A stretch of 56,476 nt of DNA, counting the filler, from Sphacelaria rigidula (taxonomy: Eukaryota): assembly GCA_964200075.2 (NCBI GenBank). It is 5 parts of 5 records of this genome, joined end to end, with 100 filler letters (N's around TTAATTAATTAA, not from the genome) between each part and the next. Parts side by side here need not be neighbours in the genome. Positions count along the whole stretch, not along the records: positions 45,263 to 56,476 come from CAXNAA020005229.1; 4 more parts are not named here. The stretch is one strand, 5' to 3'. A program made the position numbers and the translations under genes. Below, one piece after another: positions 1,694 through 56,476 of this stretch. Under the pieces are notes generated by a model. It made no database searches. It saw nothing but the letters and a program-made list of their open reading frames with translations, and was not told the origin of the DNA. How positions within the stretch are numbered: position 1 is the first letter of the stretch; every line of letters starts with the position of its first letter.

Positions 1694-3429
1694 TCTTCGC
1701 ATCAAAAATCGTTCCTGTATCTGCGCGGTACATCCGTACTGGGCATCTGATGCGGACACCTTCTGTGGTCACAAGCTAGCTACCTATAATAAGGTATGAG
1801 GGAATCAAACAAGAAAACAAAAAAAGACCCGAAAAAAAAACTCAGATGCGATACAAGCAAAACAGGAATAAAAAATAAAGAAGGAAGAGAATGACTATAG
1901 CTAACCTCAGAAGATATCTATGGCTTCGAAAGCTTAAGGATCGTCCCTCAGGCACTTCAGCCAGTTTTGTTTCGGGCACCCTGGTCCTGGATCCTCTCTC
2001 CCCACTAATGTTCCGAATGCTATTCGCTTCGGTTGTCGTCAGTCCGGTTGTCTAGCCAGGGCTCCCGCGAACAGCATCGTTGCCGGACGATGGCTCCGGT
2101 ACTTTGGCATCAGGTCTTCTTGAGGGCCTGTGCATACGAAAGCAATCGGTATGTGCCACGCACTCGGCGGTACTCAATGACTCGCAGAAGGAGCCGGTAG
2201 TGTACCTTCCTCAGCAAGTCGTAGTGTTCGCGGCGCGGGGCTCACATCATGCATCCGTATACTAGAGCCTCCATCGCCTCTGCTTTCAGCAGTCGGACCT
2301 CGAGTCTCCACGGTGCTTTCGGTTGATCAAAGAGCTCCAGGGAGAACTTCCTGATGCACGCCCACGCTGCTCTGCTCCGATTGTTGATTTCTTGCTTGAG
2401 TTTACCTTCTTATTTGACGAGCCCGCCCGAGTATCGGAAACTACTTTTCTGGGTGTACTTCTGGCCCACTGCTTCGATGATCAGCGGCGGGGGAGGAGGT
2501 ATTGGTGACTCTTCCTTCTTCGGTGCTTGCCTCGGTACTCGCATCAATAGATTCTCCGTCCTCTTTTCCGATATGGTTAGTCCAAACGCCCCGAACACGT
2601 CCAATATAATGTTCATCATCCCCGCCAGGCCGTCGGGGATCTCGAGACGACGCCGGCATCGTCGGCATATAGTATTCTCCATACCGCTCTCCGTACACGT
2701 TCTAGAGGTGTCTCCGCCCCCCGCCCCGTCTCCTCCTCGAGATATACCATGTCCTTGATGACGATATCGTCCTCGCTTCATCGCACGAGGATTATCTCGA
2801 GCACCGCTGCGAAGAAAATGTTGAACAACAGGGGAACAGCACACACCCTTGCCGCAGTCCCTGTGTGACTTCGAACCACTCCGAGAGCTCCTCGTCGTCC
2901 ATGCGTACGCGGGTCTGCACACCGTCGTGGAATTGGCAGATAATCGCTATAATATCATACGGAATACCAGCTCGAGCCAGTATCTGCCACAGAAGCTCTC
3001 GGTCGACCGAGTCATAGGCCTTTTGGAGCTCGTCGAAGCCCATGTACAGCGATATTCTTCGCCGCCGTCCCAGCTCCTGAAGTCGGCGCACTACGGACAG
3101 CATGTCGACAGTGGATCGGTCAGGTCGCAAGTCGCACTGTTCCTACGGTAATATCTCGTGTGTTTCGCAGTAGTCGCGGAGACGGTTGGCCAATTTCTTA
3201 AGGGGCGCTTTCCCTGCGTGCGACATCAGAGAGATTCCCCTGCAGTTATCGCAATTGGACCGGTCCGATTTCTTGTACAGCACCTTGATCGTTGCGTCTT
3301 TCCAATCCTGTGGGACCTTCGCTCCGTTCCACACCTCGACGAGAATGGCATGGAAGCGTTCGAGGACGATGGGTTCGGCGCAGCGGTCGATCTTGAGCAG
3401 CTCTAGAGGGAGGGAGTCGTGTCCTCGCA
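1603..3429 (-). mobile_element. 5'-truncated, frameshifted RTE-type LINE (reverse transcriptase fragment)
   Basis: Minus-strand pieces: VPQDWKDATIKVLYKK..NCRGISL (3143-3430); [41 protein letters not shown] (2792-3130); LYADDAG (~2655-2675); then the RT C-terminus, 3' UTR and CAA tail. Confidence 0.92.
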
Positions 3430-3825
3430 TGTGTAAGGTGTATATCCCTGGGAATTTCTTGCTCGCTGGTAGTATGCTGTATTGTTACCCACCAGATCAG
3501 GTAAGGGCAGCATACTACGGTAGTGCTGAAAACTGCCTTATTAATGCGATCGAGAGTTGACGACGGTGCCTTGTAATAACGTTACAATATCCGCCGATGA
3601 TGGAACAGGCGCACATTGACTGAGTATCACTCTGTCGAACGGCACATGCGCTCCCTATATTCATCCACCGTCGTGTAGAGGTTAGCTCAGACGTGACTCT
3701 AAGCGTCGTCACAGTATTAACGTGATCAGTTTTTGTGAGACTTCGCAGACTTCTTCGTGTCCTTCTTATCGAGGGGAGTCTCCCCCGTTTATGAATTCCC
3801 CTTTTGAAAGGGGTCCCTATGCACA
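3430..3825. mobile_element. LTR-like segment (possible solo LTR) between the two LINEs
   Basis: Starts TGTGTAAGG and ends CCTATGCACA (imperfect TG...CA inverted termini); non-coding; begins exactly where LINE homology stops. No TSD found. Confidence 0.4.
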
Positions 3826-5535
3826 TTTATTATTATTATCATTATTCCCGCACACTGGTCCAATCTCTCGAACCCGTGGTCACAAACGTTGGCTCGCCTG
3901 TACAATACTGTACCGCCCTTGCTATTCCCTACAAGACATAGCGTCTTCCGTCAATTGTTTCAGACTTCAGCCTAACTACAAGAACAAACGCAATCAACTA
4001 TGATATCACCAAAATAAAAATAAGAAGAGAGACGCCAAGAAAAACATGAGAAGTAGCTCCCCCGAGTTCGAAGGGATGAAAAAAAACAAAAAACTTCAGA
4101 TCTGCCAAGAATAGCACACCGACAGAAGACGGGAAAAAAATACAAGAAAATACAGATGACACAAACGGATTAGCAAGGCATCCTCATAGACCACCACCAC
4201 AGCTGTTCGGAAAGACCGCAGATGTACTAGTGAGTATCCTACCCGATGGACTACTGGTTACTTTTTGAAGGTCCTCGGTGGGCACTAGGGGAGCTCTAGT
4301 GGTAGCACAGCAAAAATTTCCTTAGCGTGGCGTGCTTTCGTCCAGGCTGCCGTGTGCATGTTAGCCCCCTCCTCTACAGCTCGGGACCATTCGGACACGT
4401 CTGCAATCTGCGTCCACGATGTCGCATTTATTCCGGAGTACGAAGAGTAGCCCGTGATACAGTGTTTGTAGGCGCCTTGCTGGTTGGTCTGCCCTTGTCT
4501 TCCCCCCAACCATGACTCCACACATCACGATGTTGGGGAGGCGTTCATCGTGTATTCGCACAACGCGGCCGGCGTGTTGGAGGGTTCGCTCCATCACTGT
4601 GGCCTCAGGGCACTTGCAGCTAGTTCGTTCGAGAAACTCGTGGTATGGCAGTATGTGGTAGTCAGGGGCGCTGCGGCTTGAGGTATGCTTATTGAGGCAC
4701 CTCAGCAGGAGTCCTCGATGGGTCTCCCGTAACGTTCCGAAATGATCGTGTACAATCGTCCAGGTCACGCAGCCGTATAGCATTACTTCGATCACTTCAG
4801 TCTTCAGGAGATGAACCTTAGTGGCGAGCGCGATGTGCGGGTTATCGTATACCGCTCTGCTGTACTTGTAGAAGCACGTCCAGGCCTGGCCAATGCGGCT
4901 GTGGATTTCAGGAGTGACATCACCGACGCTGCTTATTTTTCCGCTAAGGTAGAGGAACGACTCATTTTGCTTGTATCTTTGGCACGCTGCCTCCACCTCG
5001 ATCGTATCCGTCTCCATTTTCGGGGAGCGCATGTGCATCGTGACCGTCTCCCTTTCCGCGGCGACGAGACTGAATGCCGCACATACGTCGACGACGGCCG
5101 TCAACATCTTTGCCAGGCTTACCCGGGACCGCGAAGCGATGCCAGCGTCGTCGGCGTATAGCATAGCCCAGAGCACTTTGCTGAGTTCGTCTCTGGTCTT
5201 CCCGCCCCTTTCAGCGATTCGGATGAGGTATTGTACCTCCGCTTTATTGATCGAGAAGCGGTCGAACGTTACCGTCAGCACCGCCGCGAAAAAGGTGTTG
5301 AACAGACCGGGGGAAAGTACACACCCTTGGCGGAGGCCCTGGTTAACGTTAAACCACTCAGACGTCTCGCCGCTGTCCAGGCGTACGTATGCTCGAATGC
5401 CGTCGTGGAATGTGCGGATGATGGAATCACTTGGCGGGGATACCGTAGCGTGCTAGAACTTTCCAGAGAAGAGAGCGGTCCACTGAGTCGTATGCCCTTT
5501 GAAGGTCGATGAAGCACATATACAGAGGAAGATTC

Positions 5536-6217
5536 CACAGGTCGAACGAGTCATTACTCGTTTAGACGGGTGCACTTGTGGGTGTTTTTCCAAAACACAA
5601 CGAGCATGACTTGAGTGCTCGTCCCATTATGTTTTTTCCACAACGAGCAATGGCTCGAGTGCTCACCCTAATAATTATTGCCACAACGAGCGATGACTCG
5701 AGTGCTCGCCCTAATGTTTTTTTCCACAACGAGCAATACTCGAGTGCTCGCCCTATTAATTATTGCCACAACGAGCAATGACTCGAGTGCTTGCCCTAAT
5801 GTTTTTTTCCACAACGAGCAATGACTCGAGTGCTTGCCCTATTATTTTTTTCCACAGCGAGCAATGACTCGAGTGCTCGTCCTATTAATTACTTCCACAA
5901 CGAGCAATGACTCGAGTGCTCGCCCTGTTATTTTTTTCCCACAACGAGCAATGACTCAAGTTCTCGCCCTGTTATTTTTTTCCACAGAGAGCGATGACTC
6001 GCGTGCTCGCCCTATTGATTTTTTCCACAACGAGCAATGACTCGAGTGCTCGCCCTATTATTTTTTCCCACAGCGAGCAATGACTCGAGTGCTTGCCCTA
6101 TTAATTATTGCCGCAACGAGCAATGACTTGAGTGCGCGTCCTATTGATTTTTACGGCCAACGAGTAGCCCAACCAGTGCGAGCGTCACGAGTCACACTCG
6201 TGCTCGTCCGGCGTATG
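5536..6217. mobile_element. Non-autonomous DNA transposon (P/hAT-like MITE) inserted in the LINE RT
   Basis: 8-bp TSD GAAGATTC at 5528-5535 and 6218-6225; TIRs CACAGGTCGAACGAG / revcomp CATACGCCGGACGAG; excision restores LAREKNLPLYMCFIDL. Confidence 0.88.
5591..6165. repeat. Tandem array of 13 x ~43-bp units with a palindromic core
   Basis: Unit ccacaaCGAGCAatgactcgagTGCTCGccct plus an ~11-nt AT-rich linker; units start near 5638, 5681, 5724, 5766, 5809, 5852, 5895, 5939, 5982, 6025, 6068 and 6111, with a degenerate first copy near 5595. Confidence 0.95.
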
Positions 6218-8544
6218 GAAGATTCTTCTCTCTAGCTAGTTCTTGGAGCTTGCGCACAACGAACATCATGTCGACTCCAGACCGGCCAAATCAGAAACCG
6301 CATTGTGCTTCCGAGAGGATTCCCTTCCACTCGCAATACGCGCTGAGGCGAGTCGCGACTATCTTGAGTACCACCTTGCCCGTATGGGACCCGAGAGAAA
6401 TACCGCGGTAGTGGCCGTATTCGTGCGAATCCTGTTTCTTCAAAGGCACCTTGATGGTGGTGTTTTTCCACTGCTGCGGCACTACTTCCTGACGTCACCC
6501 GGTGAGCATGATGTTGCGGAGGCACTTCAGGATTACAGAGTGTTCGGTGCGGCCGAGCTTCAATAGTTCGCCCCAGATGTTGTCCGTCCCAACGGCCTTG
6601 CCGTTCGCTAGCTTGCCCACCGCTTCCTTCATTTTTGCCATCGAGAGCTCCACCGCGAGTGGTGCATGCTCCGGCATCTTTTCGATGAGATCGATGACAG
6701 TGTGGTCGATCGCAGGCGAGGTTGCGTTCAGCAGTGTTTCGAATCGCGTTTTCCATCGTCGAAGGATAGCTTGCTTGTCCCGCAACAGCTCGCCAGTCGC
6801 GCTCCTGATTCAAGTTGAGTCGCTCTGTCTTTTCCCTTCCAGTTCCAAGGATTTGATATGCTGGTACAGTCCTGCTTGATCTTTCTTGCGAACAACCTCC
6901 GCGGTCCGGACTGGGAACTCGTGAACGAAGTTCTGCAGCTCAGTATGCTTCACCCGCTTGAACGCTTTCTTCGCTATCTTCAGCGCCCTCTTCAGAACAG
7001 CGTCGTTCGGGTTTGCTCGCAGATTTTTTCATACATTTTCCCTGAGATCCCACGTTTTTTGGAGACGATCCTGAGCTTGAGTTAACTCATTGAAACCTCT
7101 ATTGTAGATGGGGTTTTCTTGGGCATCGAGGGAGTGTATCCGCGACCGTCTGCCGCAGGGCGTCGGCGAAGGTATATAACATGTCGTTGACGTCCATTTC
7201 TGCGGGGGAATTGGTGACACTCGGGAGTTTAGCGACAATGGCCTGTGGAACAGTCGCTCTCCAACGTCGGTCGGATGCGCGGATATTGCGATCGACACGC
7301 ACTCTCCTATCCCCGTCTCTCGGTTTCCGTTGGCGGTTGGGAGCGTTGCGTTCGAGGAGACGGATGGTGGCTGAGATCAGCGATGGTCCAACTTAATCGC
7401 GGGGGGCACAGTGACATTTTGGACGACTCTGCGATCTTGCTGACGTACTACGATGTAGTTCAGGCGCCAGCGGTGTTCGATCTTCGGCCCCGCATATGTG
7501 TAGGCGGTCGAGCTTTCCCCGCGCATTGGTGTGCGAAAAAATGTGTTGGTGATGGCCATTTTGTGTTCCGCAGCTAATTTCAGTTGGCGTCTACCGTTAT
7601 TGTTCCGGGTGTCTCTGCCATATGTTTATTCTCTCAATACCCAAACGTCACCCATGCCTCCTCCTTCTCTCCTTCCGGTACGAGCATTGGCATCCATCAT
7701 GAATACTAGGTGCTCGTTAGTGGACACTTCAGCGATGGAACTACTGATGGTTTTCCAGAACTTGGTTTTTTCAGAACCTTGCGCTGCCTCAGTAAGAGCA
7801 TACCCTACGATCAAGGTTTTTGCAACTCTATGCCTGAAAGTAACTCGTACCTTGAGGATCCTAGCGCTCAAGTGTTCGGGGTCGATGACTCCTGGGCCCA
7901 GAGTGCTGGCGATAGACTCCTTAATGGCGAAGCCGACTCCGACCATTCCCGGTATACCCCCGTCTCCATGGCAGTGGCCGCTGCAGCGAACGATGTACCT
8001 GATGCCGGTGCGTGGAAGGTTATTCGTCCATCACGCCGGGCTTGTTGAAGGGCGACGAAATGACAGTTGTATTCACATGCAAAAAGCAGCAGGTTCTCGG
8101 CGTGGCCTGTGCCGTTGGAACCTCTCTCGGACATGGTGCGTAAATTCCAAGTGGCAACCACCAGCTCTTTGGATCGAGACTCCACCCTTGCGGTGGGGCG
8201 ATGGGCGCGAACCTGAGCCTTGGCTGCTCGCCGGGCTGGTCTTTTCCTCCCTGTTTTCCTTCGTTTTGCTATGTCCCTTTCCTGTTGGTATTTGATCCAG
8301 TGTTTGTGGGCTATTCTCTGTTTCCACGCACTCTTCTGCCTACGCTGGTTCATGCTTCTTTGTTCCTGCACGGGGTTCAGCGGGCCTCGCGCACGTCGAC
8401 CTCCACCAAGTCGACCTTTGTGTTTACACGCACGCCGCTGTCTGCTCTCAGAGCTACGCCAGCAATGCTTTCGGAGGTGGTGATGATTGGTCGGATTACC
8501 GGCCCCCACCGGCAGGGGTAGGGCGTGTTCCGATGTCATCGCCA

Positions 8545-9491: not shown

Positions 9492-9680
9492 TTGGTTCCG
9501 CGGGATCGCGTTTGGTGACGGGTCGCAACATGCAGTTCAGTAACAACGGTAGTTCTTAGCATGTTGCATTTGGTCTCGTCGCCGTTGGTTCCGCGGGATC
9601 GCGTTTGGTGACGGGTCGCAACATGCAGTTCAGCAATAGCGGTAGTTCTTAGCATGTTGCATTTGGTCTCGTCGCCGTTG
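9492..9680. repeat. 93-bp tandem duplication (2 copies)
   Basis: ttggttccgcgggatcgcg...gtcgccgttg at 9492 and 9585, nearly identical. Confidence 0.92.
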
Positions 9681-10403
9681 TTCTTGTGCTACAGTATCTC
9701 AAATTGTATATGTTGTCCCCGAGGGGACGGACCTCACAAGGCGGTAGTGAAATGCCGAGGAAATCCTGCCGGAGCACTGCAAGCAGGGCTAACCCGACGA
9801 TTGCAAAAACAGGTGTGAAAATGACACTCGGTGAGTGTCAATCAGTTTTCACACTGATTAGAACAGATACTACACATGATCTTAGCCAAAAGGCCGAGAA
9901 GGTATGTCCGTTGAATCGTGTGTGACGTTTTATCAATTCACATCTTTCTGAAAACCCCGTGGTCCCGACTCTACCGATCGAATACAAAAAATATTACTGT
10001 CAGCTCTCGGTCAGCTAAGTATTTTTCAGGCATCTATTATTACATTGTTAGCGATAGCGCACTGCTCATTGAAATCCGTCTGCTGCTGTTATTGCTGCCA
10101 TGTACCTGGCCGGAGGTGTAAAGAGATCAGTCTGTTCAGCTACGCATGGACGTTTCCTTTAGCTTTATGTCGGCGAGACATCCGTCGCACCAGTAACGAA
10201 GGAAGTGCCATGTTCACACGCGCCATTCGCGTCGGTTGTGGTATGCGGTTTTGGCAGTTACAGCTCTGTCTGGGACTGTACACACAAATGATACGTTTTG
10301 AAAATTCTGTTGTCCGGTGCCTACTACTATTATTATTGTCAGTTCTCATGTCCAGCAAACCGAACATGGCCGACAGGGGGATTGAGTGAGTACTGCACCG
10401 TTG

Positions 10404-11217: not shown

Positions 11218-11317
11218 NNNNNNNNNNNNNNNNNNNNNNNNNNNNNNNNNNNNNNNNNNNNTTAATTAATTAANNNNNNNNNNNNNNNNNNNNNNNNNNN
11301 NNNNNNNNNNNNNNNNN
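11218..11317. other. Artificial contig-joining linker (N44-TTAATTAATTAA-N44)
   Basis: 100-nt N block with a central six-frame-stop linker; same layout repeated at ~11.3-kb intervals. Confidence 0.97.
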
Positions 11318-22533: not shown

Positions 22534-22633
22534 NNNNNNNNNNNNNNNNNNNNNNNNNNNNNNNNNNNNNNNNNNNNTTAATTAATTAANNNNNNNNNNN
22601 NNNNNNNNNNNNNNNNNNNNNNNNNNNNNNNNN
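22534..22633. other. Artificial contig-joining linker
   Basis: N44-TTAATTAATTAA-N44. Confidence 0.97.
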
Positions 22634-33848: not shown

Positions 33849-33948
33849 NNNNNNNNNNNNNNNNNNNNNNNNNNNNNNNNNNNNNNNNNNNNTTAATTAA
33901 TTAANNNNNNNNNNNNNNNNNNNNNNNNNNNNNNNNNNNNNNNNNNNN
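33849..33948. other. Artificial contig-joining linker
   Basis: N44-TTAATTAATTAA-N44. Confidence 0.97.
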
Positions 33949-41549: not shown

Positions 41550-41998
41550 AACACGGGATTTTACAAATTGGGGATGGATCTTTTGTTGGGGATGAAAACC
41601 CGGAGGATTGAAATCTCCGTATCCACACCAAATCTTCGAAGTATGCTTCCATTTCCTCACTTGCTGGTTGTTATTGACAGCTACTACACTCCATACAAAT
41701 TTGGATTTCGATAACCGAAAAGTCGGGGTCCCAGTGGAAAAAACTTCTTCTGTTTTTTTTTGGGGGGGGGGGTTAGGTGTCCGATCGGACGCCAAAATTG
41801 GTTCCTCACCTAGGATCCCGACATTTCGCTTATCGAAATCAAAAATTGTATGGCGTGCGGTAGTTGTCAATTGCTGCCAGCAAGTGAAGAAATGAAAGCA
41901 TACTTCGGAGATTTGATGTGGATACAAAAATTTTAATTCTCCGGGTTCTCCTCCTCAATGAAAAGGTCCATCCTCATTTCATTGTAAAATCCCGTGTT
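41550..41998. mobile_element. 449-bp foldback MITE with ~190-bp TIRs and a 4-bp TSD
   Basis: AACACGGGATTTTACAA / TTGTAAAATCCCGTGTT; the arms stay alignable to ~41735 and ~41808; AAGG on both flanks. Confidence 0.88.
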
Positions 41999-45162: not shown

Positions 45163-45262
45163 NNNNNNNNNNNNNNNNNNNNNNNNNNNNNNNNNNNNNN
45201 NNNNNNTTAATTAATTAANNNNNNNNNNNNNNNNNNNNNNNNNNNNNNNNNNNNNNNNNNNN
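45163..45262. other. Artificial contig-joining linker
   Basis: N44-TTAATTAATTAA-N44. Confidence 0.97.
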
Positions 45263-45425
45263 TCTTCCGTGCAAGACAGATATGCCACTTCAGCCCCATA
45301 TTTTGTATGAACCCCAAAATATAAAATCGACTGTTATGACGTATGTCGGTGGATTCTTCTGTGGCCTTCCGCCGCAAAAATAGTTGTTGTCGATATTTTA
45401 GTTTCCCATATTTTCTTCTTTATCA

Positions 45426-45682
45426 AAGTGATGCTACGGTAGGGGTAGAGAAATAGTTTCTGAGATTTGAATTGTTAGAAGCCCCTTATCTCATTCAAAA
45501 CACGAGTAATAAAAATATGCGAGAGTACGCCAGGATTACGAGTCCAATGCGCTGGGGATATCCCGAATACATCTGCAAACGGGGATGCCCTGACCCGTAT
45601 TCTTATGCGTCTAGAATCGTCAGGAGCCCCTGAACCAGACAAAATTTGGCGAAAAATGTGCACCCCTACCGTAGCATTGCTC
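45426..45682. mobile_element. 257-bp Sola-like MITE, copy 2 (inverted)
   Basis: Reverse-complement match to 28759-29015; exact 4-bp TSD ATCA at 45422-45425 and 45683-45686. Confidence 0.87.
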
Positions 45683-46041
45683 ATCAGCGGTGGCAATAAT
45701 ATGGTGTCTGGACCGGGGGCGGGAGGGGAGGGTTCTCAAAGGATTCTTTATTATCAAGACGCGGAACACAACTCAAGGAACCACAGAGACAAAAAGAAAT
45801 CAGAAAACTAGAGCGAGTAGGAATTTCAGTTCAGAACAAATGTCGTAATTCCATGAAAAAAACGGTGGTTGCTTGATTAATGAATGTTGAACTTACGCGC
45901 AAAATATCTGTAGCCGAATAATACCAAGCCGTAGGTTTCAGTATTATCGCATGCATGATTGGAGCAGTGGCAGGGGACAGGGGATCCTGGATTGATGGCC
46001 CTTATCTGTGTCGCCCCCTATTGCTGGCTTGTGATGTGATC

Positions 46042-47125
46042 TGTTGAGGATCACTCCGCAATAATAACAAGTTAGAAGAAAGGATTTGTCGAGCACGAGG
46101 GCAGTGCTACTGGAGGGGTCCCTCGTCAAAAGTCCTCTTGTCGAGATCGTCTCGCAGAGGCTATAATATGTAGATATTACTCATCCGTCACTCCCTTAGA
46201 GGAGTTTGACTGAGGAGAAAAGTGGGCTGCAGCTGAAAGCCTGTTGAGCCCGCAGACAGAGAGACCAACTTGGAGCGCACAGCAATGGGGGACGCTCCGT
46301 GGGCTGTAGGACGCACAAGTCAGGCAAGCCTCTCTCAGTGAAGGTCGAATTCTAGTCTACATGGCTCAAGCGGCGGCAGCGCCGCTGGTGTTAGGTGAGT
46401 CACTAGAGCCGCCCAAGTATGGCGAAGTGTGGACTGAAGAATCGTCGAGAATTTTCGATGCCAAATATCTTGATTACAAGAAGAGGCTATATTTAGCCAA
46501 TGCCACAGGGGGCATACGGCATGAGACAGTGAGCATCGGTCGACTCATCCCTACCTATGTTCACCGGCGCTTCGAAGATATGTACAAGGACCGTCGGGCT
46601 ATGACCCCCGACGAATTGCTAGATGCTGTGGAGTAGCATGCCGGGTGCACCACAACCGGCGGCAAGCGTGACACTGCGCGGGCCGCAGCAGACCTACGTA
46701 GAGTTCTTGCCATGACACAAAGCGGCGGAATATATGTGACGGATCATGCGATGATGGTCAGTTCATCGATGGAAAACCTGACGGTGCAAGTCATGTACCG
46801 TGCGGAGGATAGGAGTTGGTTGCCAGGCCCGGCCGAGTCGGTTTCCATAGCTTTGGTGGACGGGGTTTCGCCTCCGGAATTCAAGGCGTATGTTAGAAGT
46901 GTACTAGCGTATGTTGACGGCTGGAAAACGAACCCGGCGGTGGTGTTCAAAGCAAGATTTGATGCTGCCGATCAGTGGAAATCCATTGAAACACATGGCC
47001 GGCGCGATTCTGCGGCAAGTGTAGGTAGTGCCTGCCGCAAACAGCAACAGCAATAGGATCAGCAGTCGTATTCGCGAGCGTCGTCTTCTCGCGCGTGTTA
47101 TAACTGCGGCGACACCGGATATCTG
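46042..47125 (+). mobile_element. Decayed LTR retrotransposon 5' part: LTR-like segment, PBS and gag pseudogene (Ty3/Gypsy-like)
   Basis: TGTTGAG..ACCAACT (46042-46270) then TGGAGCGCACAG; ORF from ATG 46361 with in-frame stops, LVDGVSPPEFKAYVRSVL..WKTNP, ending in a broken zinc knuckle CYNCGDTGYL at ~47096-47125. Confidence 0.68.
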
Positions 47126-47139
47126 ATGACTAATAATGC

Positions 47140-48195
47140 CGAGAAAGCCCCTCCACAAGAAGTGCACCGGAGACCGTCCGACAAACCGGCGAAAGACATG
47201 TTTCCACTCGACGCCGACCTAGTTCTTCAGGGCCCTTTCGTTGGTTTGATAAAATTTTTCAGTGCTCTGTACTGCTTTTTCGAAGGACCAGATATATGGC
47301 GGGAATCAGTTGTGGCTGGTTTCCAACCGGGATCAGTCACGTTGGGGTTACGTACTGAAGATGTCTTGGAACACATACAACAGTATATGGCATGTGAACA
47401 AATAAACAAGCCAAATATATACAGGAAGTATGACGAAAACTCTGATTATGCAGCATTTGATTATACTGCGATAGCCCCACCCACAAACAAGTGCATCAGA
47501 GATCGTCCAACAATGGGAAAGATGGCGCGTTTTCGCCAGATGTCGATCTGGTCCTTTGGGGTCTCTTTGCCCGTTCAGGATCCTCTTTTTTGGGCTCGCT
47601 ATCGATTTTGCTAAGGGCCAGAAATCCCGTCAGGAATCGTTTGTGGCTGTTTTCGAAACAGGATCAGTCACATTGATTGTCGCGCCGACGACATTTCCCC
47701 TCAACACCTGCAACAGTATGCACGCGTCGGGCGTTGGTTGCGCATACCAAGTTGTCGATACATAGCCCATGCTGAAGGAATCAACGAGACGAGAGGAGGG
47801 TACCCAAATCACGAAACGTAAAAGACGCAGATATGACTAGATAGCAACGCGTACTACAATACCCACCTGCTCTGCTCCGTCGTTGTCGGGTAGTCGTACT
47901 GTCGAAAATAGACCTTCGATGACATTATTTCACACGCCCAGCATTGCATGGGGCCAGAAATGCCACGAAGAACCCTTTGTGGCTGGTTTCGAAACCGGAT
48001 CAGCGACGTTTGGGTTACGTACTGATATTTTTTCAAACAACACATGCAACAGCACTATACGTAGCCTATGGAGAAAGAAACAAGCAGAGGAGAGGAAGCC
48101 AACTGTATATAGAATTTAGGAACATGTTTATCTGATTATGCATCATTTGATGATGCTGCGATTGCCCCACTCACAAACAAGTGCATCGGAGACCG
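47140..48195. repeat. Degenerate tandem repeat, ~330-bp unit, 3 copies
   Basis: gg.ccaga.at...ttgtggctg.tttc.aa.c.ggatcag.cac.ttg near 47285, 47615 and 47951; tctgattatgca.catttgat.at.ctgcgat.gccccac.cacaaacaagtgcatc at 47441 and 48131. Confidence 0.85.
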
Positions 48196-48779
48196 GAGTG
48201 GGGGTAACAGCCATATCATGTGAGGTCGAGAGCACGAGAGTTCACCAAAGACGGCAAAACAATCATTCCATCTGGGGATTGGCTTTCATGTACCCGTAGG
48301 CCGGTTGCCACCTGCTACAGCATCATCCAGTGTCAAAAGTTTCGGGTCGAGGGACCACACGGCATATCCTATTCTCGTTTACGAGTGAGGTGTCGACATT
48401 TAGCAGGATCGATACACCTCGCTGAACAACAACAGATCTTCTTATAGCCGACCATGCTGCAGGATGTTGTGCATATGACACCATACATGTTGTCTGTGGT
48501 TGAGTGACTAGCTTCCCGGATCTTGCTACGGTCTCGTGTAGTTCCATCTCGGAACCGAGCAGAATCGCTACGCCCCGTGTTGGGCATCTTTCGGGGTGAA
48601 GGTATTTAAGGGGCCGGTCTCCAGGGAAGCATCGATGCAGTCCTGGGCGGAAGTCGTGCTTCCTCCTAGTGTCGCAGGGAGGTGGTTGTGTGTTTTCGTC
48701 GATCACACCGGCTATCATTGCCACTGCGTCGGGATTCCGAACGTCGAAACAATCACTACGTCTCGGCCGTATTCCCGTC

Positions 48780-49400
48780 CTGCCACAGATAAAGGGGCTG
48801 ATCGTAAGAGGCGCAACATCAACAACGGCATTACAAACTATGTCGCTGGGGTGACCCCGAAGTGCAGCCCAATGCTGTATTGCCCATCTACTACATCCTG
48901 TACTTTGCCACCAGTCGTTCTCATCATATCGACCTTAGACGCCACACTCGCCACCGTTTCCGTAATTGACTTCGGCGCTGATATCAATTGTCGCACTTAC
49001 ACTTACAGTTCAGCGGCGCCCCCAGAAGTTAATGGGCGTTTTCTTCTCGTCGAACATTCGCCGCAGTAACTCCTCTGCAGTGGCCCGATGGTTTCTGTGA
49101 GAGCTCTGTGTGATACTCCACTCCCCGACATTTCTGCGATGAGTACTCGACGAGCGTGTGAACCTGGAGTCGAGTCTACAATAGCAGAACTACACAGCAC
49201 TCATTCATCTCCTTCACGGCCTCAACGATGATCAGCTGATCTTCATTTGATGGCCCATGCTCGTGGACTACACCTTTGCGGCGGAAATGCTAGAAGTGCT
49301 TGTGGCCAATGAGCTTCTTCATCACCGCACGATGGAAATCAGCATCCAGTACCTCATTACATTTGTTTCTTTCACGCAGGGTGCGAACGGCGTCGTCGAT
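48780..49400 (-). pseudogene. Possible highly decayed gag/aspartic protease remnant
   Basis: Across a frameshift the minus strand reads VSATIDISAEVN/SITETVASV, resembling a retropepsin D[ST]GA motif context; many stops. Confidence 0.3.
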
Positions 49401-50697
49401 GGATTCCAATATGTTCCGTTGAATATTATCGTTTCTAGCACATCTCTGTGCTGGTGTACCGGACGACGCAAGCTCCGTACTGGAAAGATGATAGGTAATT
49501 GCAACAGTACAAAGGGATTGACACTGGATTGAATCTTATTATCGTAATATATTGAAGGCATCAGTACTGTTGGTGAGTGTGAGTGTGAGGAGGGGGGCTT
49601 GACCTCTATCGGACGCCGAACCACGCGTCGGAAAGCATGTTGAATGAACGATACCTGCGCATAAGTATAATATGTATGGACACCGACTACGATAGTCTTG
49701 GGACGCCACAACAAGCTCGCATTCCTTCCTCATGATATATATGTAGGTTCAATATCCCGGCAAGAGTACAATACCGGGCGGTCCAACAACCTGTCTGTCC
49801 TCTTGTCCTATCGTTCGTCAGGTTCATCTACAAGAGTTATGTCACTACTTCTTCAGTCATTATTTTTGTCTCGTGGTTGGTTTTGCGAATCAGCATATGG
49901 GGAGGAGATTCGTCAATGACCACACGATTCAAATGATATGCAATAATTGGTGTATGTGAGTACGATACAGTCTTTCTGTCTATCTTATTCACGTTACTGG
50001 ATGGGGATATACATTCATAGGAGTAGACAAGTGATGCGGTCGATGTAAGTGCGCTGTTACATGACCTTTCTGCTCGAACTCTTCGACATATGTGGGATGG
50101 AAAATGGAGAACGCCAAAGTGATAGCCATGTCACTGCTCCCTCTCTAACTCCTCTTCCTCCCTCTGTCTTCCCTCCCCTTCTTATGATCCTATCGTGGTC
50201 GGTTCCGGAAACCCGCCAAAAACAAAGGTTGATGGCCGTTGAACTGAGTGGGTCCGCTGATACACGGTGGGGCGTGCTTATAGTGGGCGATGCCGACTAT
50301 GTTTACCACCTCGGAAGCTGCATCGATTGAATATGTTATAGAGCCCTTGACGTGAGTGTGTTGAACGTGAGGCAATATTGCTTCTATCGTCTGTCGTTTG
50401 TTCAAAAAATCGCCCATCCTCAGTCATTCTGTATGCCAAAAATTGCCATGTCTCCAGTGATTTTACTAAGCGTAGTGTTTGTGCAGGGTATGATCAGTTG
50501 TGGTATTACGATATAGATTATTTGTGGCTCCTGTGGTACAACGTTTTGACGCATGCGATATTTCACTTGTTACGGAGTTCACAAGTCGGTTCGTGAAACC
50601 GGCCCCCTTTTCAGGAGATGAGTATATTTGACCTCTTGTTTAGGAGATGGGTATACTCCGGGTTTTTATCCTCAAAAAAGAAAAGCATTCCCAATTA

Positions 50698-53444
50698 CAC
50701 ACGGGGACAGATAGCACCCTGTGGAGGGGGTCTACAGGGTTTACCTACCCTGCGCAGTGTTTCTGGCGGGAATTTTACTGTACAGTGTTTGCCAGCGTAG
50801 CACAGGACGCTCCACAGGGTTTCCCTACAGTGGTCATGAATAGTGCGCATCACAGGGTTGCTCTCCACAGGGTTTCTCTACAGTGGTCATGAGAAGTGTG
50901 CATCACAGGATTCCGTCGCCCCGTGAAGACTTCATCGCTGCTGGCAATGCTGAGCAGTGTGTTTACGCACAAACACTACCCTCCCCACGCAGCTGCGGGC
51001 GCAAGGTACTGGCGGAAAAAAGAACTGATTACGTTGGACGGGAGTCGAACCCTCGACTTCACAATTATGTTGACTACCGGTTACACACGGAGCTACGCGT
51101 CGTAATCTTTACGGGTTAGGTTTTTCGTACTTCTGAATTCTGGGGCCCTCGAACGTTCGTGTCAATAACACTGAAATCCCCCGAATTGTTTTTAGACGCA
51201 CAAGTGTAATAATAATGGAAATCTGGAATTTGGACAGCCGCTGCTGTTCGAAATTAATCCTAATTCCACATTTGGAATAGAGCAAAAAGGATTCATCCGA
51301 AATAAATCCTAATTCCAAACTTGGAATATAGGGGGAAAAGGATTCATTCCGAAGAGCTTGAGCTGTACAGATAATCCCATATACACTGTATAAAGCAGAT
51401 GAAATTTGTACACCGCGAAAAATATACCTGAAATTGGGTGGAGAAAGAATTTGCTCGCGAGCAGCTTCAGCTGTTCAAGTCCCAACTACTGCGCGCAAGC
51501 TTTTGTTGCAGCTGTATCGTCATGACCAATTGACCTAGGTCATAGATCCACATACCTGATGAAAACCCCGTAGTCTTGCGTCGACGAAACTAGAACATTT
51601 TACAGGGAATAATGAAGCATCTCATCGCGCTGTTGATACTGCGTATACTGGGGATACATATTCACAACAATGAACTGGACTGGACTGTACAATACCATTG
51701 CATGCGGTACAGTGCGCTATATCGCCGTGCTTATACGTGCGGCGCCATGTATTGCAGATAGCTGGCTATAAATACAGTGTAGATGCCCGCATGCAGCTTA
51801 TTTTGATATATGGGGCGGGTGTTATATACCGTCAAGAACTTCAGGTTTTCACGCGCGCGTTCCAGCACAGCATATTTGCGCGCACATGCATCAGCTGCAT
51901 GCTGCTGCAGCACAGTAAGTAGGGCGTGAAAGGGAAGGGGAAAAGTACAGTACAGACAGCGCGGGACAATGTATGTATGTTCTCTACCTATGGTGCGACG
52001 TGAAAAGGACTTGAACAACGTGCAGCATATCGTACGCGGCCTGTATATGCTGCACTATATATGTTATATCGCGGTGCATCCGCAGCATGCATATGGTGAG
52101 TGCTATGCATAATATAGGCGGCCGGTTGATATTGTTCCTCGCACCCGCCTATATATACGCACTCGCCCGCGTATGTCGTCGCCGCGCGCGATGTCGCGAA
52201 CGCCATGAAAGAAGGTGCTCAAGTTTCCACCAACAAGAAATACATTATATCCACCCGCACGGCAGTGTGTATATGTGTCTATATATTTCCCTGTGCCCAA
52301 CCCATCCGTGCTCTTTGCTGCGGGGTTGTGGTAGTATAGCTGCATGGGCGGAATAATAATACTGTTGTGCGCGGGCGGGTATATGCGTTTATTGATGCTC
52401 GATTTGTGTGCGGTGATGATAAATATACGAAGTGATGGTCTACATATACTATTCATATACGATTGATTAAGTGATGTTTTCTAAACATGGTTCGTGTTGG
52501 TAGAGGACGGAAGACGGGGTTTTGTGAAAAATGTATATAGATTGACGAGGTATACCCGATAACCCGGCATCTTCCCACCTTCCCGGGAGCTTTAGACGAA
52601 GCACAGGTGTGGACATGCACACGTATCCAACGTGTGGGATCTCTATTCAGCGAAAGCGGTTGAGAGCTATTCATCCTCTAGCCCATGTACACATGGACTG
52701 AGGGGCGAAAGGATGAATATATTTCAGCAACTTTCTCTGCGTGTCGGATCGCATGCGCCGGTGACGATGCAGTATGCGGGATTTGCCCAGCAGCTGACGC
52801 TGCTTGCAATATAAATTTCTTTTTCCCCAATTTCTGGATGGAATTGGAGGGAAAAGTAAATACTTATCTCGAGCTTCTTCTACTGCTCAAATTCCGGAGC
52901 TGCCAGTGTGCATGGGATTTGCGCAGTAGAAGAAGCTGTTCGAAACAGATCCTTTTTTCGCTCATCTCAAAAATGGGCGAAAAATGGATCGATTTTGGAC
53001 AGCTTCTTGTGCTCTTCTCAATAAATCCTTTTTTTTGCCGAAATAAATTGGGCGAGAGGAGGACCTGTTTTGGATCTAGCTTGTCCTGCTGTCCGAAATA
53101 AATTCCTTTTCGCTCGATTCAAATCGGGTGAAGAGGAATTTACCTCGGAAAGGAGGACAAGGTATTGAAAATATATAAATTTACAGATTTTGTACCAAAA
53201 CATTTGGAATTTTCGAAAACAAAACTTGAGTTTTTTTTCACCAAAACACTACCACATGACTATGTAGGGCTTTCCCGACGTGCCTACAAAGGGCTGCAAA
53301 TCCACCCTGGGGAAAACCCTATCAAAACGCTGCGATGGCTACAGATTTTGCATTTCACTGTCAGGGATTTTTCACCAAGACTGTGGAGGACCCTGTACGG
53401 ACCCTGCACAGTGCGCCCCACAGGGTGCTATCTGTCCACGGGTG
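50698..53444. mobile_element. 2.75-kb non-autonomous DNA transposon with CAC...GTG ends and TA flanks (CMC/CACTA-like)
   Basis: TA|CACACGGGGACAGATAGCACCCTGTGG ... CCACAGGGTGCTATCTGTCCACGGGTG|TA; ACAGGGT/ACCCTG subterminal repeats; no transposase ORF. Confidence 0.87.
50910..51101 (-). mobile_element. tRNA-derived SINE nested in the CACTA-like element
   Basis: Minus-strand head gacgcgTAGCTCcgtgtg...gagGGTTCGACTCCcgt with A/B boxes; 3' boundary approximate. Confidence 0.5.
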
Positions 53445-53747
53445 TAGTACAATCCCGTTTTGTCGGCTCTATGTCCGTCACCTTCGCTTTTATTCTGGCG
53501 CTGTGGAGAGCTCTCTGGGGTGTCGGCATTGCCTACAGCACATTCTTTGCCCTTGCCCGCTCCCCTTACTGTGTCAACTTATGTGCGACCCTGAGGATGC
53601 TGCTAGAGTGCGGCGCTACGTGGCGTGTGGCATTCTGCGTCCTGCTATGTGTCCGTCGTTGCTAGCGTCTGTTCGACAGTAGAGTCGATGAGTAGACATG
53701 CCCGTCGATTAATGGCTGCGCTGCAAAAGAGTCGTATACGATAAGAA

Positions 53748-53832
53748 GACCGACGAAGGGACTTGAACCCTTACTCTCTCTGCGAAACGCGAGCGAGACG
53801 CAGGGTGCTCTTTCCAGTTAAGCTACGTCGGT
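53748..53832 (-). tRNA. tRNA-like gene with an atypical 18-nt anticodon loop (possible 11-nt intron, nominal TCT/Arg, or pseudo-tRNA)
   Basis: Acceptor ACCGACG/CGTCGGT 7/7; D arm GCTT-AACTGGAAA-GAGC; T arm AAGGG-TTCAAGT-CCCTT 5/5; anticodon stem CCCTG/CAGAG 4/5; TTTT ~20 nt downstream. Confidence 0.72.
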
Positions 53833-55470
53833 AGCGTTGAGTAGACAGGACAGGGCTCGAGTGAGCTTGACAGACAGAGTGGAGGTGAAGAGCAGAAGTT
53901 TTTGTGAGATGAGGTGGGGATGATATGCGATCTCTCCATGCAGCTCATCTCAGACAACAGGACATGGATCAAAGGACCATGTACCGACAGACATTGGCTT
54001 AGAGTTCAGTTCAACGTGTAGATCACCTTGGGTTTGGTGTGTACAACGTTCCGTGACTCTTGGGCATATTCGGTCTGATGTTGTCCCGATATTCCGAGAC
54101 AAACAGACCATCCTCTGAATATCTAGCGGACGTCTAAGGAACCTTCCTCAATGCTAGAACGTTCCCATGAAAAGAACCAATAAAATATTCTTGGACAGAA
54201 CTATAAGGTATGTTGGGTTCTCATACGTACGATTCACATCACCCCCCTAGTTGTGACGGTGTTAGAGCTCTCACTCCGTCAAAAACTCAAAAATTATAAA
54301 ATCTCAGATGATGAGATAATTCAACATTCCTTGATAGATATATAAATACGTTTAAAGTGTTCACTTTTACACTTAAGCGTAATATTCACAGGATGACAAA
54401 GACATTTATGCAAACAAACATTCGAATGCATAAGTACCGGACAGACATTTGTACTTATTTCGAAGTTGCAAAAAAGTACTTCAGGATCATTAAATTTTGA
54501 GTGATTTGACAGACAGACTTAATTTCTTCGCAGTTAACACAATTTTGGAATACTCAGTTTATATCGATCAGTGGTCGAGACTCGATCGTAGACTGAATAT
54601 ATCTAGACAGTATGTATAAAACTGCGACCTGCAGGGTCGAAATGTTTTAGTCTTTTGGACAAGTAAAATGAAATGCGCATAAAAATATGAACAAAAACAA
54701 ATGTTCATTCTTTGATCCTGTAGTGTCTTGTTACTGAGCAACGAGATAATATTGTGGCCAGACAATTATGTTATCGATGGCACTATTAATCACTGAATAA
54801 TAATACTGTTCGGCGTGGACAATCATGGCTGACAGATTCAGTGCATTGTTGTGTGCTGTTTGCACATACAATGGGACAAAATACAAAGATAAAAACGTTT
54901 AATTTTGACATGTATTTTGCGAGAAAAAATATGACAATAAATTCTCGAAGAACATAATGTTACCACTTGACGCCAATCGAGATACAATTTACCCCCCTTA
55001 CACCTTGAGGTGAATCAACATCCTTCTTGTAGACCGTTCTAGGGTCTTGCGTATATAAAAAATATACGGGATGTTGAGTGGTGGATATGTGGTACATAGT
55101 ATGTCGGACAGGGCACGTGATGCTAATGTCAGTGTTTGAAAACACTGAAAGACAGTTTTGTTGCGCAGATAAAATCTGGCAAAACCTCAACGAGTGCGTG
55201 GTACTTCGCACTCGACAAGCCATGTAGTAATAATTATCCATGGGATGATAAGGAAAAAAAGACGTATGTCATTTTTTTCTTTTTCCAGACAATTGATGGT
55301 GCATGCTGTAATGGGTGAGCATCAGTTGTTGCTGAACTGATGTGACATGTATATTGTAGCGCACTTATAAGCTCAAAACATTTAATTGTAGAACTTCTAC
55401 CGTTTTATCTTTCGAGGGGGATTAAATGCTGCTGGATCCTTGGACAAAATTGCAGCGCGATATGATTTCA

Positions 55471-56340
55471 TCATATCGTGACATTGTGGAATGGTACGAG
55501 AATATCGCCATACTCCACGTTGAGGAGGCCAATCCTTGATTTTGGGATGATATTGGAAATTCTCTTGGGAACCGGCTCCAACCCCCGCTTGTAACCATCA
55601 GTATACTCTACCGTATATGATCCTAACATGACCTTGTGCACTGAACCATCAAGGTCTGGGACTGGAAGAGTTGTTCCTAAAAATATGTCGTCGAGCGCTT
55701 CAAGGTCGGGGACAGGTGATGATATAGGATCGTTGTATTTTTTCATGCGACCAAGGTGAACAGTCATTTCCGCCGGATCATTTGGTTTACTTACTCGGTA
55801 GGTATCTGGTGATAGTTGCGTTCAGACTACGTACGGACCATACCATGTGCTGTAAAGCTCAGGATTGGGACCGTCAGTCTCGTGATATGGGCGATGTATC
55901 AAAACATTATCGCCTTGTTTGAAACTGGGAAACGACAGTTTCTCATTTGCAACCGCTTGTTTATCTGCGCGTTCTTTGAGATTGCGCCCGGCTAGCTCGT
56001 ATGCTAGTTGTAAATTGTTGGCAGTTTGACGAGAGTAATCAAGTCGTGTTTGCGGTGCAGATGTGGCTGGAACGCCAAGGATTATTTCCACTAGGAGTAC
56101 AGCTGATCTTCCGAACATTAAATAATGAGGTGTTTCCTCGAGTGTTGATGAATATGCTGTGTTGTGTGTCAATTGGACAAAAGGTAGTAATTCAGCCCAG
56201 TTATCGCAGGCTAAATTGCTATATATGGCGAGCATATAACAGAGGATTCTATAAAATGAGGTTCATCAATGAAATGAGGTTCGAGCTCAAAACAGTACTT
56301 TCTCCACGCTTTCAGCAATGGTGCCCAATGACTTTCTTGT
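55471..56340 (-). pseudogene. Ty3/Gypsy integrase C-terminal region, frameshifted
   Basis: MLAIY..DNWAELLPFVQLTHNTAYSSTLEETPHYLMFGR..FKQGDNVLI..WYGPYVV (GPY/F motif)..TVHLGRMKKY; followed by an AT-rich 3' region, PPT and LTR. Confidence 0.9.
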
Positions 56341-56476
56341 CGGCCTAATGCCCCTCGATCGCGTAGATACTTCTTCAGCGCATTTTATCGACACTGTGAG
56401 CTTACAGCGCTGTCCGGAACCGCCATTTCTACTTTTTTTTTTTTGGGGGGGGGGTGGTATCAGGGAAAAACATCAG

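Follow-up and report, generated by a model that had tools for sequence, protein, structure and literature searches.

Helenus/TRIMp3 elements are TRIMs (terminal-repeat retrotransposons in miniature) with a sequence derived from transfer RNA (tRNA) in their long terminal repeats (LTRs), and they have been described in fungi, animals and Selaginella (Kojima 2024, PMC10886601). They are 311–1263 bp long and have no coding capacity, with LTRs of 120–323 bp. The A and B boxes are conserved, the tRNAs are mostly non-functional, and they are proposed to have arisen when a tRNA-derived short interspersed element (SINE) inserted into an LTR. According to the same work, tRNA-like sequence is present in "not a few" LTRs of Repbase, and autonomous partners are expected not to share the tRNA-bearing LTRs (Kojima 2024, PMC10886601). 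Here, we describe a tRNA-like, RNA polymerase III (Pol III)-type cassette in a remnant of a Ty3/Gypsy retrotransposon of Sphacelaria rigidula. The locus lies in a stretch of 56,476 nucleotides (nt) from assembly GCA_964200075.2, hereafter the window, in which five parts of the genome are joined with filler letters between them; the part at 45,263–56,476, which holds the element, comes from CAXNAA020005229.1. The reading we favour on balance is that a tRNA-derived, Pol III-type module became fixed in the LTR of this integrase-bearing family.

In Cassandra, as outlined in part of PMC10886601, a small Pol III gene with promoter and terminator is present in both LTRs, with transcripts that begin in the copy of the 5' LTR and stop in that of the 3' LTR. 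The Sphacelaria locus resembles Cassandra in having a small Pol III-type gene embedded in an LTR, whereas Cassandra carries 5S RNA instead of tRNA and belongs to the miniature, non-autonomous elements found in land plants. A second likeness is to Ty3, Tj1, DGLT-A and similar elements, which, in the examples taken from PMC5911963, are Ty3/Gypsy-type elements lying beside a Pol III-type gene in the same orientation. The LTRs of those examples end upstream of independent, functional and varied tRNA genes (PMC5911963), whereas here the repeat unit continues through the cassette and the trailer behind it, and the cassette is no normal tRNA.

Structure of the cassette and the element

tRNA genes were called with ARAGORN, and RNA families were searched with Rfam (4227 families, both strands) across the whole 56-kb window. 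The sole ARAGORN call is a tRNA-like cloverleaf of 85 nt at 53748–53832 on the minus strand, and Rfam RF00005 matches the same positions with 43.0 bits (E 7.2e-06), which exceeds the gathering score of 29 and is, as far as the score goes, what a functional tRNA gene would give. There is no second tRNA match in the window, even with the Rfam search relaxed to E<=5. By direct reading, the acceptor stem pairs at 7 of 7 positions, including A1–T72, the discriminator is C, the D stem has 4 bp, one of them a G–T pair, and the T stem pairs at 5 of 5. ARAGORN, Rfam and direct reading thus agree with an earlier note on this DNA, which had reported the cloverleaf with perfect acceptor and T stems, this first pair and this discriminator.

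The A and B boxes and the run of four T that the same note had named are also present. The A box-like sequence TAGCTTAACTGG covers tRNA positions 8–19 (53814–53825, minus strand), and the consensus we used for comparison agrees with the TRGCY...YGG form quoted in Kojima 2024 (PMC10886601). The B box-like sequence GGTTCAAGTCC covers tRNA positions 64–74 (53759–53769, minus strand), and in Helenus, box B has GGTTC as its conserved core (Kojima 2024, PMC10886601). The T4 run, a possible Pol III terminator, is found at 53725–53728 on the minus strand, 20 nt past the tRNA-like 3' end. The tRNA-like sequence is preceded by a leader of 2–5 nt and followed by a trailer of 49 nt, T4 included. A scan for bacterial-type promoters and terminators found nothing, which has no bearing on a eukaryote.

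The minus-strand order of the locus can be read as integrase C-terminus, non-coding tail of 1.2 kb, polypurine tract, LTR, about 400 nt, first copy of a direct repeat, leader, tRNA-like sequence, trailer and second repeat copy. The integrase fragment, of Ty3/Gypsy type by Pfam and Atlas, occupies 55471–56237 on the minus strand, contains one in-frame TGA at 55822–55824, and is cut at 56237. Read through the TGA with X, it matches Pfam Integrase_p58_C with 30.9 bits against a cut-off of 27, and its nearest Atlas clusters include the SH3_Tf2-1 integrase cluster. The element thus shows the traits of Ty3/Gypsy: an integrase with a Ty3-type C-terminal module, last in pol, followed by the polypurine tract and a TG start. 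Gag, protease, reverse transcriptase and RNase H are absent from the window, the element being cut at 56237. The tail of the internal region (54249–55470, minus strand) is AT-rich and has no minus-strand reading frame longer than 102 aa; diverged contigs cover it at internal-level depth. Directly before the LTR start lies the polypurine tract AGGGGGGTGA (54239–54248, minus strand), and the LTR opens with TGTG at 54238.

The LTR-level repeat unit, TGTGAATCG...TGTCTACTCA, is placed at 53689–54238 on the minus strand by contig boundaries and depth. Its 5' boundary is firm, its 3' boundary is approximate, and with an alternative end at 53443–53447 the LTR measures about 550–800 bp. Cassette and element share the minus strand, and the tRNA-like sequence starts 406 nt into the LTR, in keeping with the sense orientation about 400 bp past the polypurine tract and TG start that had been noted before. 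The polypurine tract is present; the 5' LTR, the primer-binding site (PBS) and the target-site duplication of the element lie outside the window or have been destroyed.

Continuity of the cassette with the LTR

Nine public runs from three studies, labelled "organism A" and "algae metagenome", contain part of the stretch; each has fewer than half of the words of the stretch, and no run is recorded as RNA. Four of these were compared: X1 and X2, which share a study, X4, which belongs to an "algae metagenome" study, and X6, which is only guessed to be RNA and whose depths were left unused. X1, X2 and X4 are DNA-type runs from two studies. The comparative data are short contigs of these runs, aligned on 51500–56476 at 80% likeness, and depth was summed over contigs, a sum that is no copy number and serves for continuity only. 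Conclusions drawn from joints between contig segments rest on the joints listed, with 139 further joints outside that listing; one listed joint, 53439->56238, was set aside, its shorter side being only 21 letters long.

Position 54238 is a sharp boundary. Records 1, 9 and 18 diverge from the window exactly there and run on in unlike sequence for 112 and 139 letters; records 9 and 18 are apparently the same sequence in two runs, leaving two distinct contigs. Records 2, 10 and 11 continue past 54238 into the internal region, with identities of about 85–88%. Judged from these contigs, a true repeat boundary lies at 54238, and the repeat adjoins the internal region in some copies and other sequence elsewhere, which is what an LTR start should show. 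The table of loose contig ends misses even the divergences at 54238, and its silence at 53838 and 53690 was given no weight in either direction.

Depth changes at this boundary and then holds through the cassette. Summed depth over the internal region at 54322–56147 is 113–360, 836–1739 and 334–796 in X1, X2 and X4, respectively. From 54238 through the cassette bin, it is uniform at 1056–1751 in X1, 5338–7884 in X2 and 2147–5142 in X4, which is 5–7 times the internal region, and the bins at 53658–54155 reach 1452–1751, 7048–7884 and 2923–5142. For X1/X2/X4, the depth at position 53791, which lies within the cassette, is 1164/5615/4018; it is 592/1462/1145 at 53671 and falls to 336/1416/719 at 53653. 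Hence, the LTR-level depth falls between 53791 and 53671, and bin-mean arithmetic puts the fall near 53690–53700, at the second copy of the direct repeat.

Diverged contigs also join parts of the cassette to the LTR. Record 17 of X4, 307 nt long with 45 other letters and 19 gaps, spans 53793–54115 and joins tRNA positions 1–40 to the upstream LTR in a copy that is about 15–20% diverged. A joint 53786->53931 with 20 replaced letters occurs in one contig each of X1, X2 and X4, and represents a deletion variant without the 5' half of the tRNA in which the 3' half is still joined to the LTR. Because of the continuity in depth, the diverged contig and the deletion-variant contigs, the cassette is assigned to the repeat at LTR level of a Gypsy family that bears an integrase. 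One alternative in the earlier note, that the LTR carries its own non-decoding tRNA mimic, gains from the LTR-level depth through the cassette and from the diverged contigs; the other, an LTR ending at 53903, is contradicted by records 1 and 17, which run across that position.

Beyond the LTR-level unit, a lower-copy segment at 53447–53688 is delimited by depth on one side and by an adjoining high-copy repeat that reaches 53446 on the other. It holds an AATAAA at 53489–53494 on the minus strand, so the signal reported beyond the cassette is indeed there. The bin at 53492–53657 has depths of 456/2443/1054 (X1/X2/X4), about 1.6–1.9 times the internal level. To judge by these depths, the segment would be either the variable 3' part (U5) of a longer LTR or the leader of a tandem copy. 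Arrays in which LTR, internal region and LTR follow one another in tandem are common (Kojima 2024, PMC10886601), as is also stated in a portion of PMC13570524. An LTR end as far as 50592, proposed earlier, is contradicted by 51500–53446, which is a different repeat of far higher copy number.

The cassette could instead mark a site of Pol III-targeted integration, in which the LTR ends at the first repeat copy (53838, ...TGTCTACTCA) and the Gypsy element inserts a few bp upstream of dispersed tRNA-derived SINEs or tRNA-like genes. Such targeting would make LTR ends recur beside the same cassette. Several Ty3/Gypsy elements do insert 1–10 bp upstream of tRNA transcription start sites, or 13–33 bp upstream of a mature tRNA's sequence, in the cases drawn from PMC5911963. 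At this locus, cassette and element share their orientation, a ...CA stands 5 nt before the tRNA-like 5' end, and bin arithmetic suggests that part of 53672–53775 is deeper than the LTR in X2 and X4, which fits extra cassette copies outside LTRs. However, the trailer is repeated at the LTR level too, and the depth at 53791 is about that of the LTR in X1 and X2. The identical 10–13 nt at the far side of the cassette would also have to be a coincidence, and the cassette is no normal tRNA gene. As far as the contigs indicate, the pattern differs from Ty3- or DGLT-A-type targeting in both respects, with LTR-level depth through cassette and trailer and a non-canonical cassette. We therefore regard targeting as unlikely, and a module fixed within the LTR as the better account.

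Flanking repeat and proposed insertion history

The direct repeat TGAGTAGACA occurs at 53689–53698 and 53838–53847, so the 10-bp repeat said to bracket the cassette is exact at 10 of 10 positions, and it extends to 12 of 13 (repeat family D4). In the extended form, the first copy, TGTCTACTCAACG, lies at 53835–53847 on the minus strand and ends 2 nt before the tRNA-like 5' end. The second, TGTCTACTCATCG, lies at 53686–53698 on the same strand, near the fall of the LTR-level summed depth. With its 10–13 bp, the repeat has a size typical of target-site duplications of the type made by long interspersed elements (LINEs). A tRNA-derived SINE (SINE2) would share with the cassette the tRNA head, the A and B boxes and a flanking repeat of this length, but here an A-rich or LINE-derived tail is missing, the 3' acceptor strand is intact, and the copies are apparently tied to the LTR.

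The flanking repeat suggests an old insertion into an ancestral LTR. A copy of a tRNA gene or a tRNA-derived retroposon may have inserted near the 3' (U5) end of that LTR and duplicated 10–13 bp of its target. The two candidate LTR ends, 53838 and 53689, have identical last 10 nt, TGTCTACTCA, so that in such a history the terminal sequence needed by the integrase would have been kept. In other words, a target duplication spanning the U5 terminus would lengthen the LTR yet preserve the end that integrase recognises, and ordinary retrotransposition could then have copied the lengthened LTR to both ends and to all descendants. Since the cassette is present in other copies, any such insertion would be ancestral to the family.

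Several observations weigh against a module fixed in this way. No second copy of the LTR or the cassette was found in the window when it was compared with itself by blastn at word 11 and word 7. The comparative evidence consists of short contigs at 80% likeness, whose depth sum is no copy number, and the drop in depth near the second repeat copy and the lower-copy segment at 53447–53688 are not fully explained. Other exact repeats of 10–12 nt exist within the same 1.3 kb (families D6 and D13); the flanking repeat is notable by its position around the cassette, not by its length alone. The inserted unit lacks an A-rich tail and extends for 26 nt beyond the T4 run, so that it is not a typical SINE, and not a primary transcript that was retro-copied. 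Folded as a single strand, the 85 nt do not give the cloverleaf as their minimum-free-energy structure, and the z-score is only -1.95. Finally, a T4 run inside the LTR would also halt Pol III in the 5' LTR. Weighed against the depth and the contig joints, these points leave the fixed module, with its proposed insertion history, somewhat favoured.

Possible roles of the module

Given that the A and B boxes are intact, the leader is short and T4 is present, the module would at most be an internal Pol III promoter with a TFIIIC site, Pol III use being suggested by the boxes only. It could give a tRNA-like transcript of about 110 nt, and, as Kojima 2024 (PMC10886601) proposes for Helenus and describes for Cassandra, it could drive short, internally deleted derivatives. 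A full-length coding element, at 5 kb and with many T-runs, would still have to use Pol II. In the decayed copy described here, the cassette is probably a passenger.

Some long non-coding RNAs use tRNA-like 3' structures as a signal for processing by RNase P and RNase Z. It could be speculated that the tRNA-like RNA likewise serves the element, either as such a processing signal or as a self-supplied primer of reverse transcription. The acceptor-T minihelix has stayed intact though the coding part has decayed, and the 40 nt that follow the putative LTR end, ...CTACTCA, pair with the cassette at -27.9 kcal/mol, compared with -21.0 +/- 3.6 kcal/mol for shuffled sequences, 4.1% of 1000 being as good. 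Yet 2 of 80 neighbouring 40-nt windows pair equally well, so the pairing is not compelling, and the PBS predicted in the earlier note, TGGGACCGACGAAGGG, is absent from the window. No complementarity between tRNA-like sequence and PBS is reported for Helenus in Kojima 2024 (PMC10886601), which makes a self-supplied primer less likely from the outset. If a tRNA-like structure in U3, R or U5 were cleaved, moreover, R would be expected to be severed from the genomic RNA. A service of either kind to the element is thus improbable.

Anticodon arm and decoding

The anticodon arm at positions 28–55 (53778–53805, minus strand) is expanded and non-canonical, as Rfam alignment, an excision scan and the intron mode of ARAGORN all indicate. 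The Rfam model omits the whole arm, with 26 nt present where 15 are expected, and the score therefore derives only from the acceptor, D and T arms. In the excision scan, every contiguous 6–15 nt between the D and T arms was deleted and the product inspected for three features, namely U33, a purine at position 37 and a stem of 5 bp. None of the deletions yields all three in the standard register, so intron removal does not give the canonical anticodon arm of a functional tRNA; the best result has 4 of 5 pairs and the loop CGTCTCG or CGTTTCG. The abnormal anticodon arm described earlier is thus recovered by both alignment and excision. The only polymorphism listed among copies within the cassette, 53791 G>A, also falls in this arm, and the variant is present in 11–18 contigs. 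Because no single excision restores a canonical arm, the cassette is probably non-decoding, and its RNA would probably be tRNA-like yet not decode.

A working host gene that merely lies in or beside the LTR, namely a tRNA-Glu (CTC) with a 9-nt intron, is what the intron mode of ARAGORN would propose. In a shifted register, it places the anticodon CTC at 53795–53797 and the intron at 53785–53793, the canonical 37/38 site; the loop GTCTCGC then has U33 and G37, the latter a purine as required. The perfect acceptor, D and T arms, the A and B boxes and the T4 run would all suit such a gene. However, this register leaves a 4-bp stem plus a C.A mismatch and requires two nucleotides at position 26 and G32. 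The standard register fails, the anticodon arm adds nothing to the Rfam score, and the cassette is repeated at the LTR level. Taken together, these features make a working host tRNA gene very improbable.

The least credible account is a single local event, in which a tRNA-derived SINE or tRNA pseudogene entered this LTR copy with TGAGTAGACA as target-site duplication: the direct repeat that flanks the cassette does resemble such a duplication, but other, diverged contigs join cassette parts to the LTR (record 17 and the joint 53786->53931), the depth over the cassette equals that of the LTR, and none of the joints listed precisely excises 53699–53837. The earlier suggestion of a SINE head inserted once is therefore sustained for the repeat and fails on the presence of the cassette in other copies; as a local event, it is largely refuted by the contig comparison.

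Relation to Helenus and searches for relatives

Like Helenus/TRIMp3, the element has a sense-orientation, tRNA-derived sequence with A and B boxes in its LTR, a tRNA that is probably non-functional, LTRs far in excess of internal parts, and a proposed origin by insertion into an LTR; the boxes and the tRNA-derived sequence are supported by Rfam and ARAGORN in the one LTR read. It differs in that an LTR of about 550–800 bp is joined to an integrase-bearing internal region, an arrangement that other contigs share with the window. Internal sequence of 2 kb, integrase C-terminus included, adjoins the LTR without a break, which is at odds with a TRIM. The diverged contigs of records 2, 10 and 11 keep the LTR-internal junction. 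In X2, a contig with the joint 54609->53727 runs from the T-run via 26 other letters into the internal tail, and this contig may represent an internally deleted element or a rearranged one, the former being a short derivative. The element thus resembles Helenus in its working but is no member by definition.

The literature searches made brought up no account of an LTR retrotransposon that has coding capacity together with a tRNA-like LTR, which is weak evidence of absence. Two DNA patterns of the cassette gave 0 matches in the viral_contigs collection, and the integrase fragment gave 23 pattern matches there, of which 0 were confirmed. In a metagenome collection, the T-arm/acceptor pattern had 1 match, a tRNA-His(gtg) at 1534–1608 on the plus strand of a 26-kb contig (L001). 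This tRNA shares with the cassette the whole T arm, the 3' acceptor strand and most of the D arm. As a relative of the cassette it was rejected and read as a chance match, its identity being imposed by the pattern and an LTR context being absent. The shared acceptor strands are uninformative, because the pattern fixes the 3' strand and the 5' acceptor strand must follow.

Integrase remnant and other features of the window

The TGA at 55822–55824 is the only stop in the integrase fragment, and all other contigs have G at 55824, which makes the codon CGA. The stop is a CpG-to-TpG change private to this copy, and the polymorphism at 53791 is likewise a CpG transition. On the evidence of the contigs, the family includes copies in which this codon is open. 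Repeats flank the Gypsy remnant on both sides: depth in X1 is 11,000–73,000 at 51500–53446 and 136,000–710,000 at 56148–56476, compared with about 1,500 in the LTR. The right-hand high-copy repeat starts exactly at 56238, marked by dozens of loose contig ends, and truncates the integrase.

Elsewhere in the window, a full-length gene for the U2 spliceosomal small nuclear RNA is found at 9722–9905 on the minus strand (Rfam RF00004, 140.3 bits), with a tandem duplication of about 93 nt just upstream of it (9492–9591 and 9585–9683, 96% identity). A minus-strand reading frame at 4361–5452 has a reverse-transcriptase domain (Pfam RVT_1, 33.6 bits against 29.6); the analyses made showed no LTR context, and the frame is probably a fragment of a different retroelement. 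Self-comparison also revealed a tandem array at 5596–6164 with a period of about 43 bp and 82–87% identity between units. An inverted repeat of about 190 nt (41550–41734 and 41998–41810, 82%) has an Rfam match to MIR2619, a family of plant microRNA precursors, that is below threshold, at 50.4 bits against 113, and it looks like a foldback repeat or one of the miniature inverted-repeat transposable element type rather than a microRNA gene. Pairs of 44-N blocks with 12 bases between them recur every ~11,316 bases, at 11218–11317, 22534–22633, 33849–33948 and 45163–45262, and two further blocks of 10 N are present elsewhere. The regular spacing suggests masking or scaffolding, not biology.

Implications

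Where LTRs contain tRNA-like sequences, tRNA genes are overcounted and Pol III promoters are spread through the genome. So far, such sequences have been described for miniature non-coding elements (Helenus), whose autonomous partners are expected to have Pol II LTRs. The arrangement as such is therefore already described, and the present element is an interesting variant, not a new kind.

A bolder proposal is that an integrase-bearing Ty3/Gypsy lineage with an intact non-decoding Pol III unit at the U5 end is the "missing parent" of Pol III-driven miniature elements, which we consider doubtful. If true, internally deleted derivatives would switch from Pol II to Pol III with the same LTR kept; an example would be the X2 contig in which the cassette T-run leads directly into the final ~370 nt of the internal region. 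It would also contradict the expectation that TRIMp3 and its autonomous partners do not share LTRs.

If a coding Gypsy LTR does carry the module, it would show how such elements can originate, through insertion of a SINE or tRNA into the LTR of an autonomous element followed by internal deletion, and a further lineage would be added to those with the phenomenon. It would also offer a concrete system for asking whether one LTR can serve the two polymerases. Should the module be no more than a passenger, its value would lie in annotation: this tRNA call, and probably many alike in the same genome, would have to be masked as repeat-derived.

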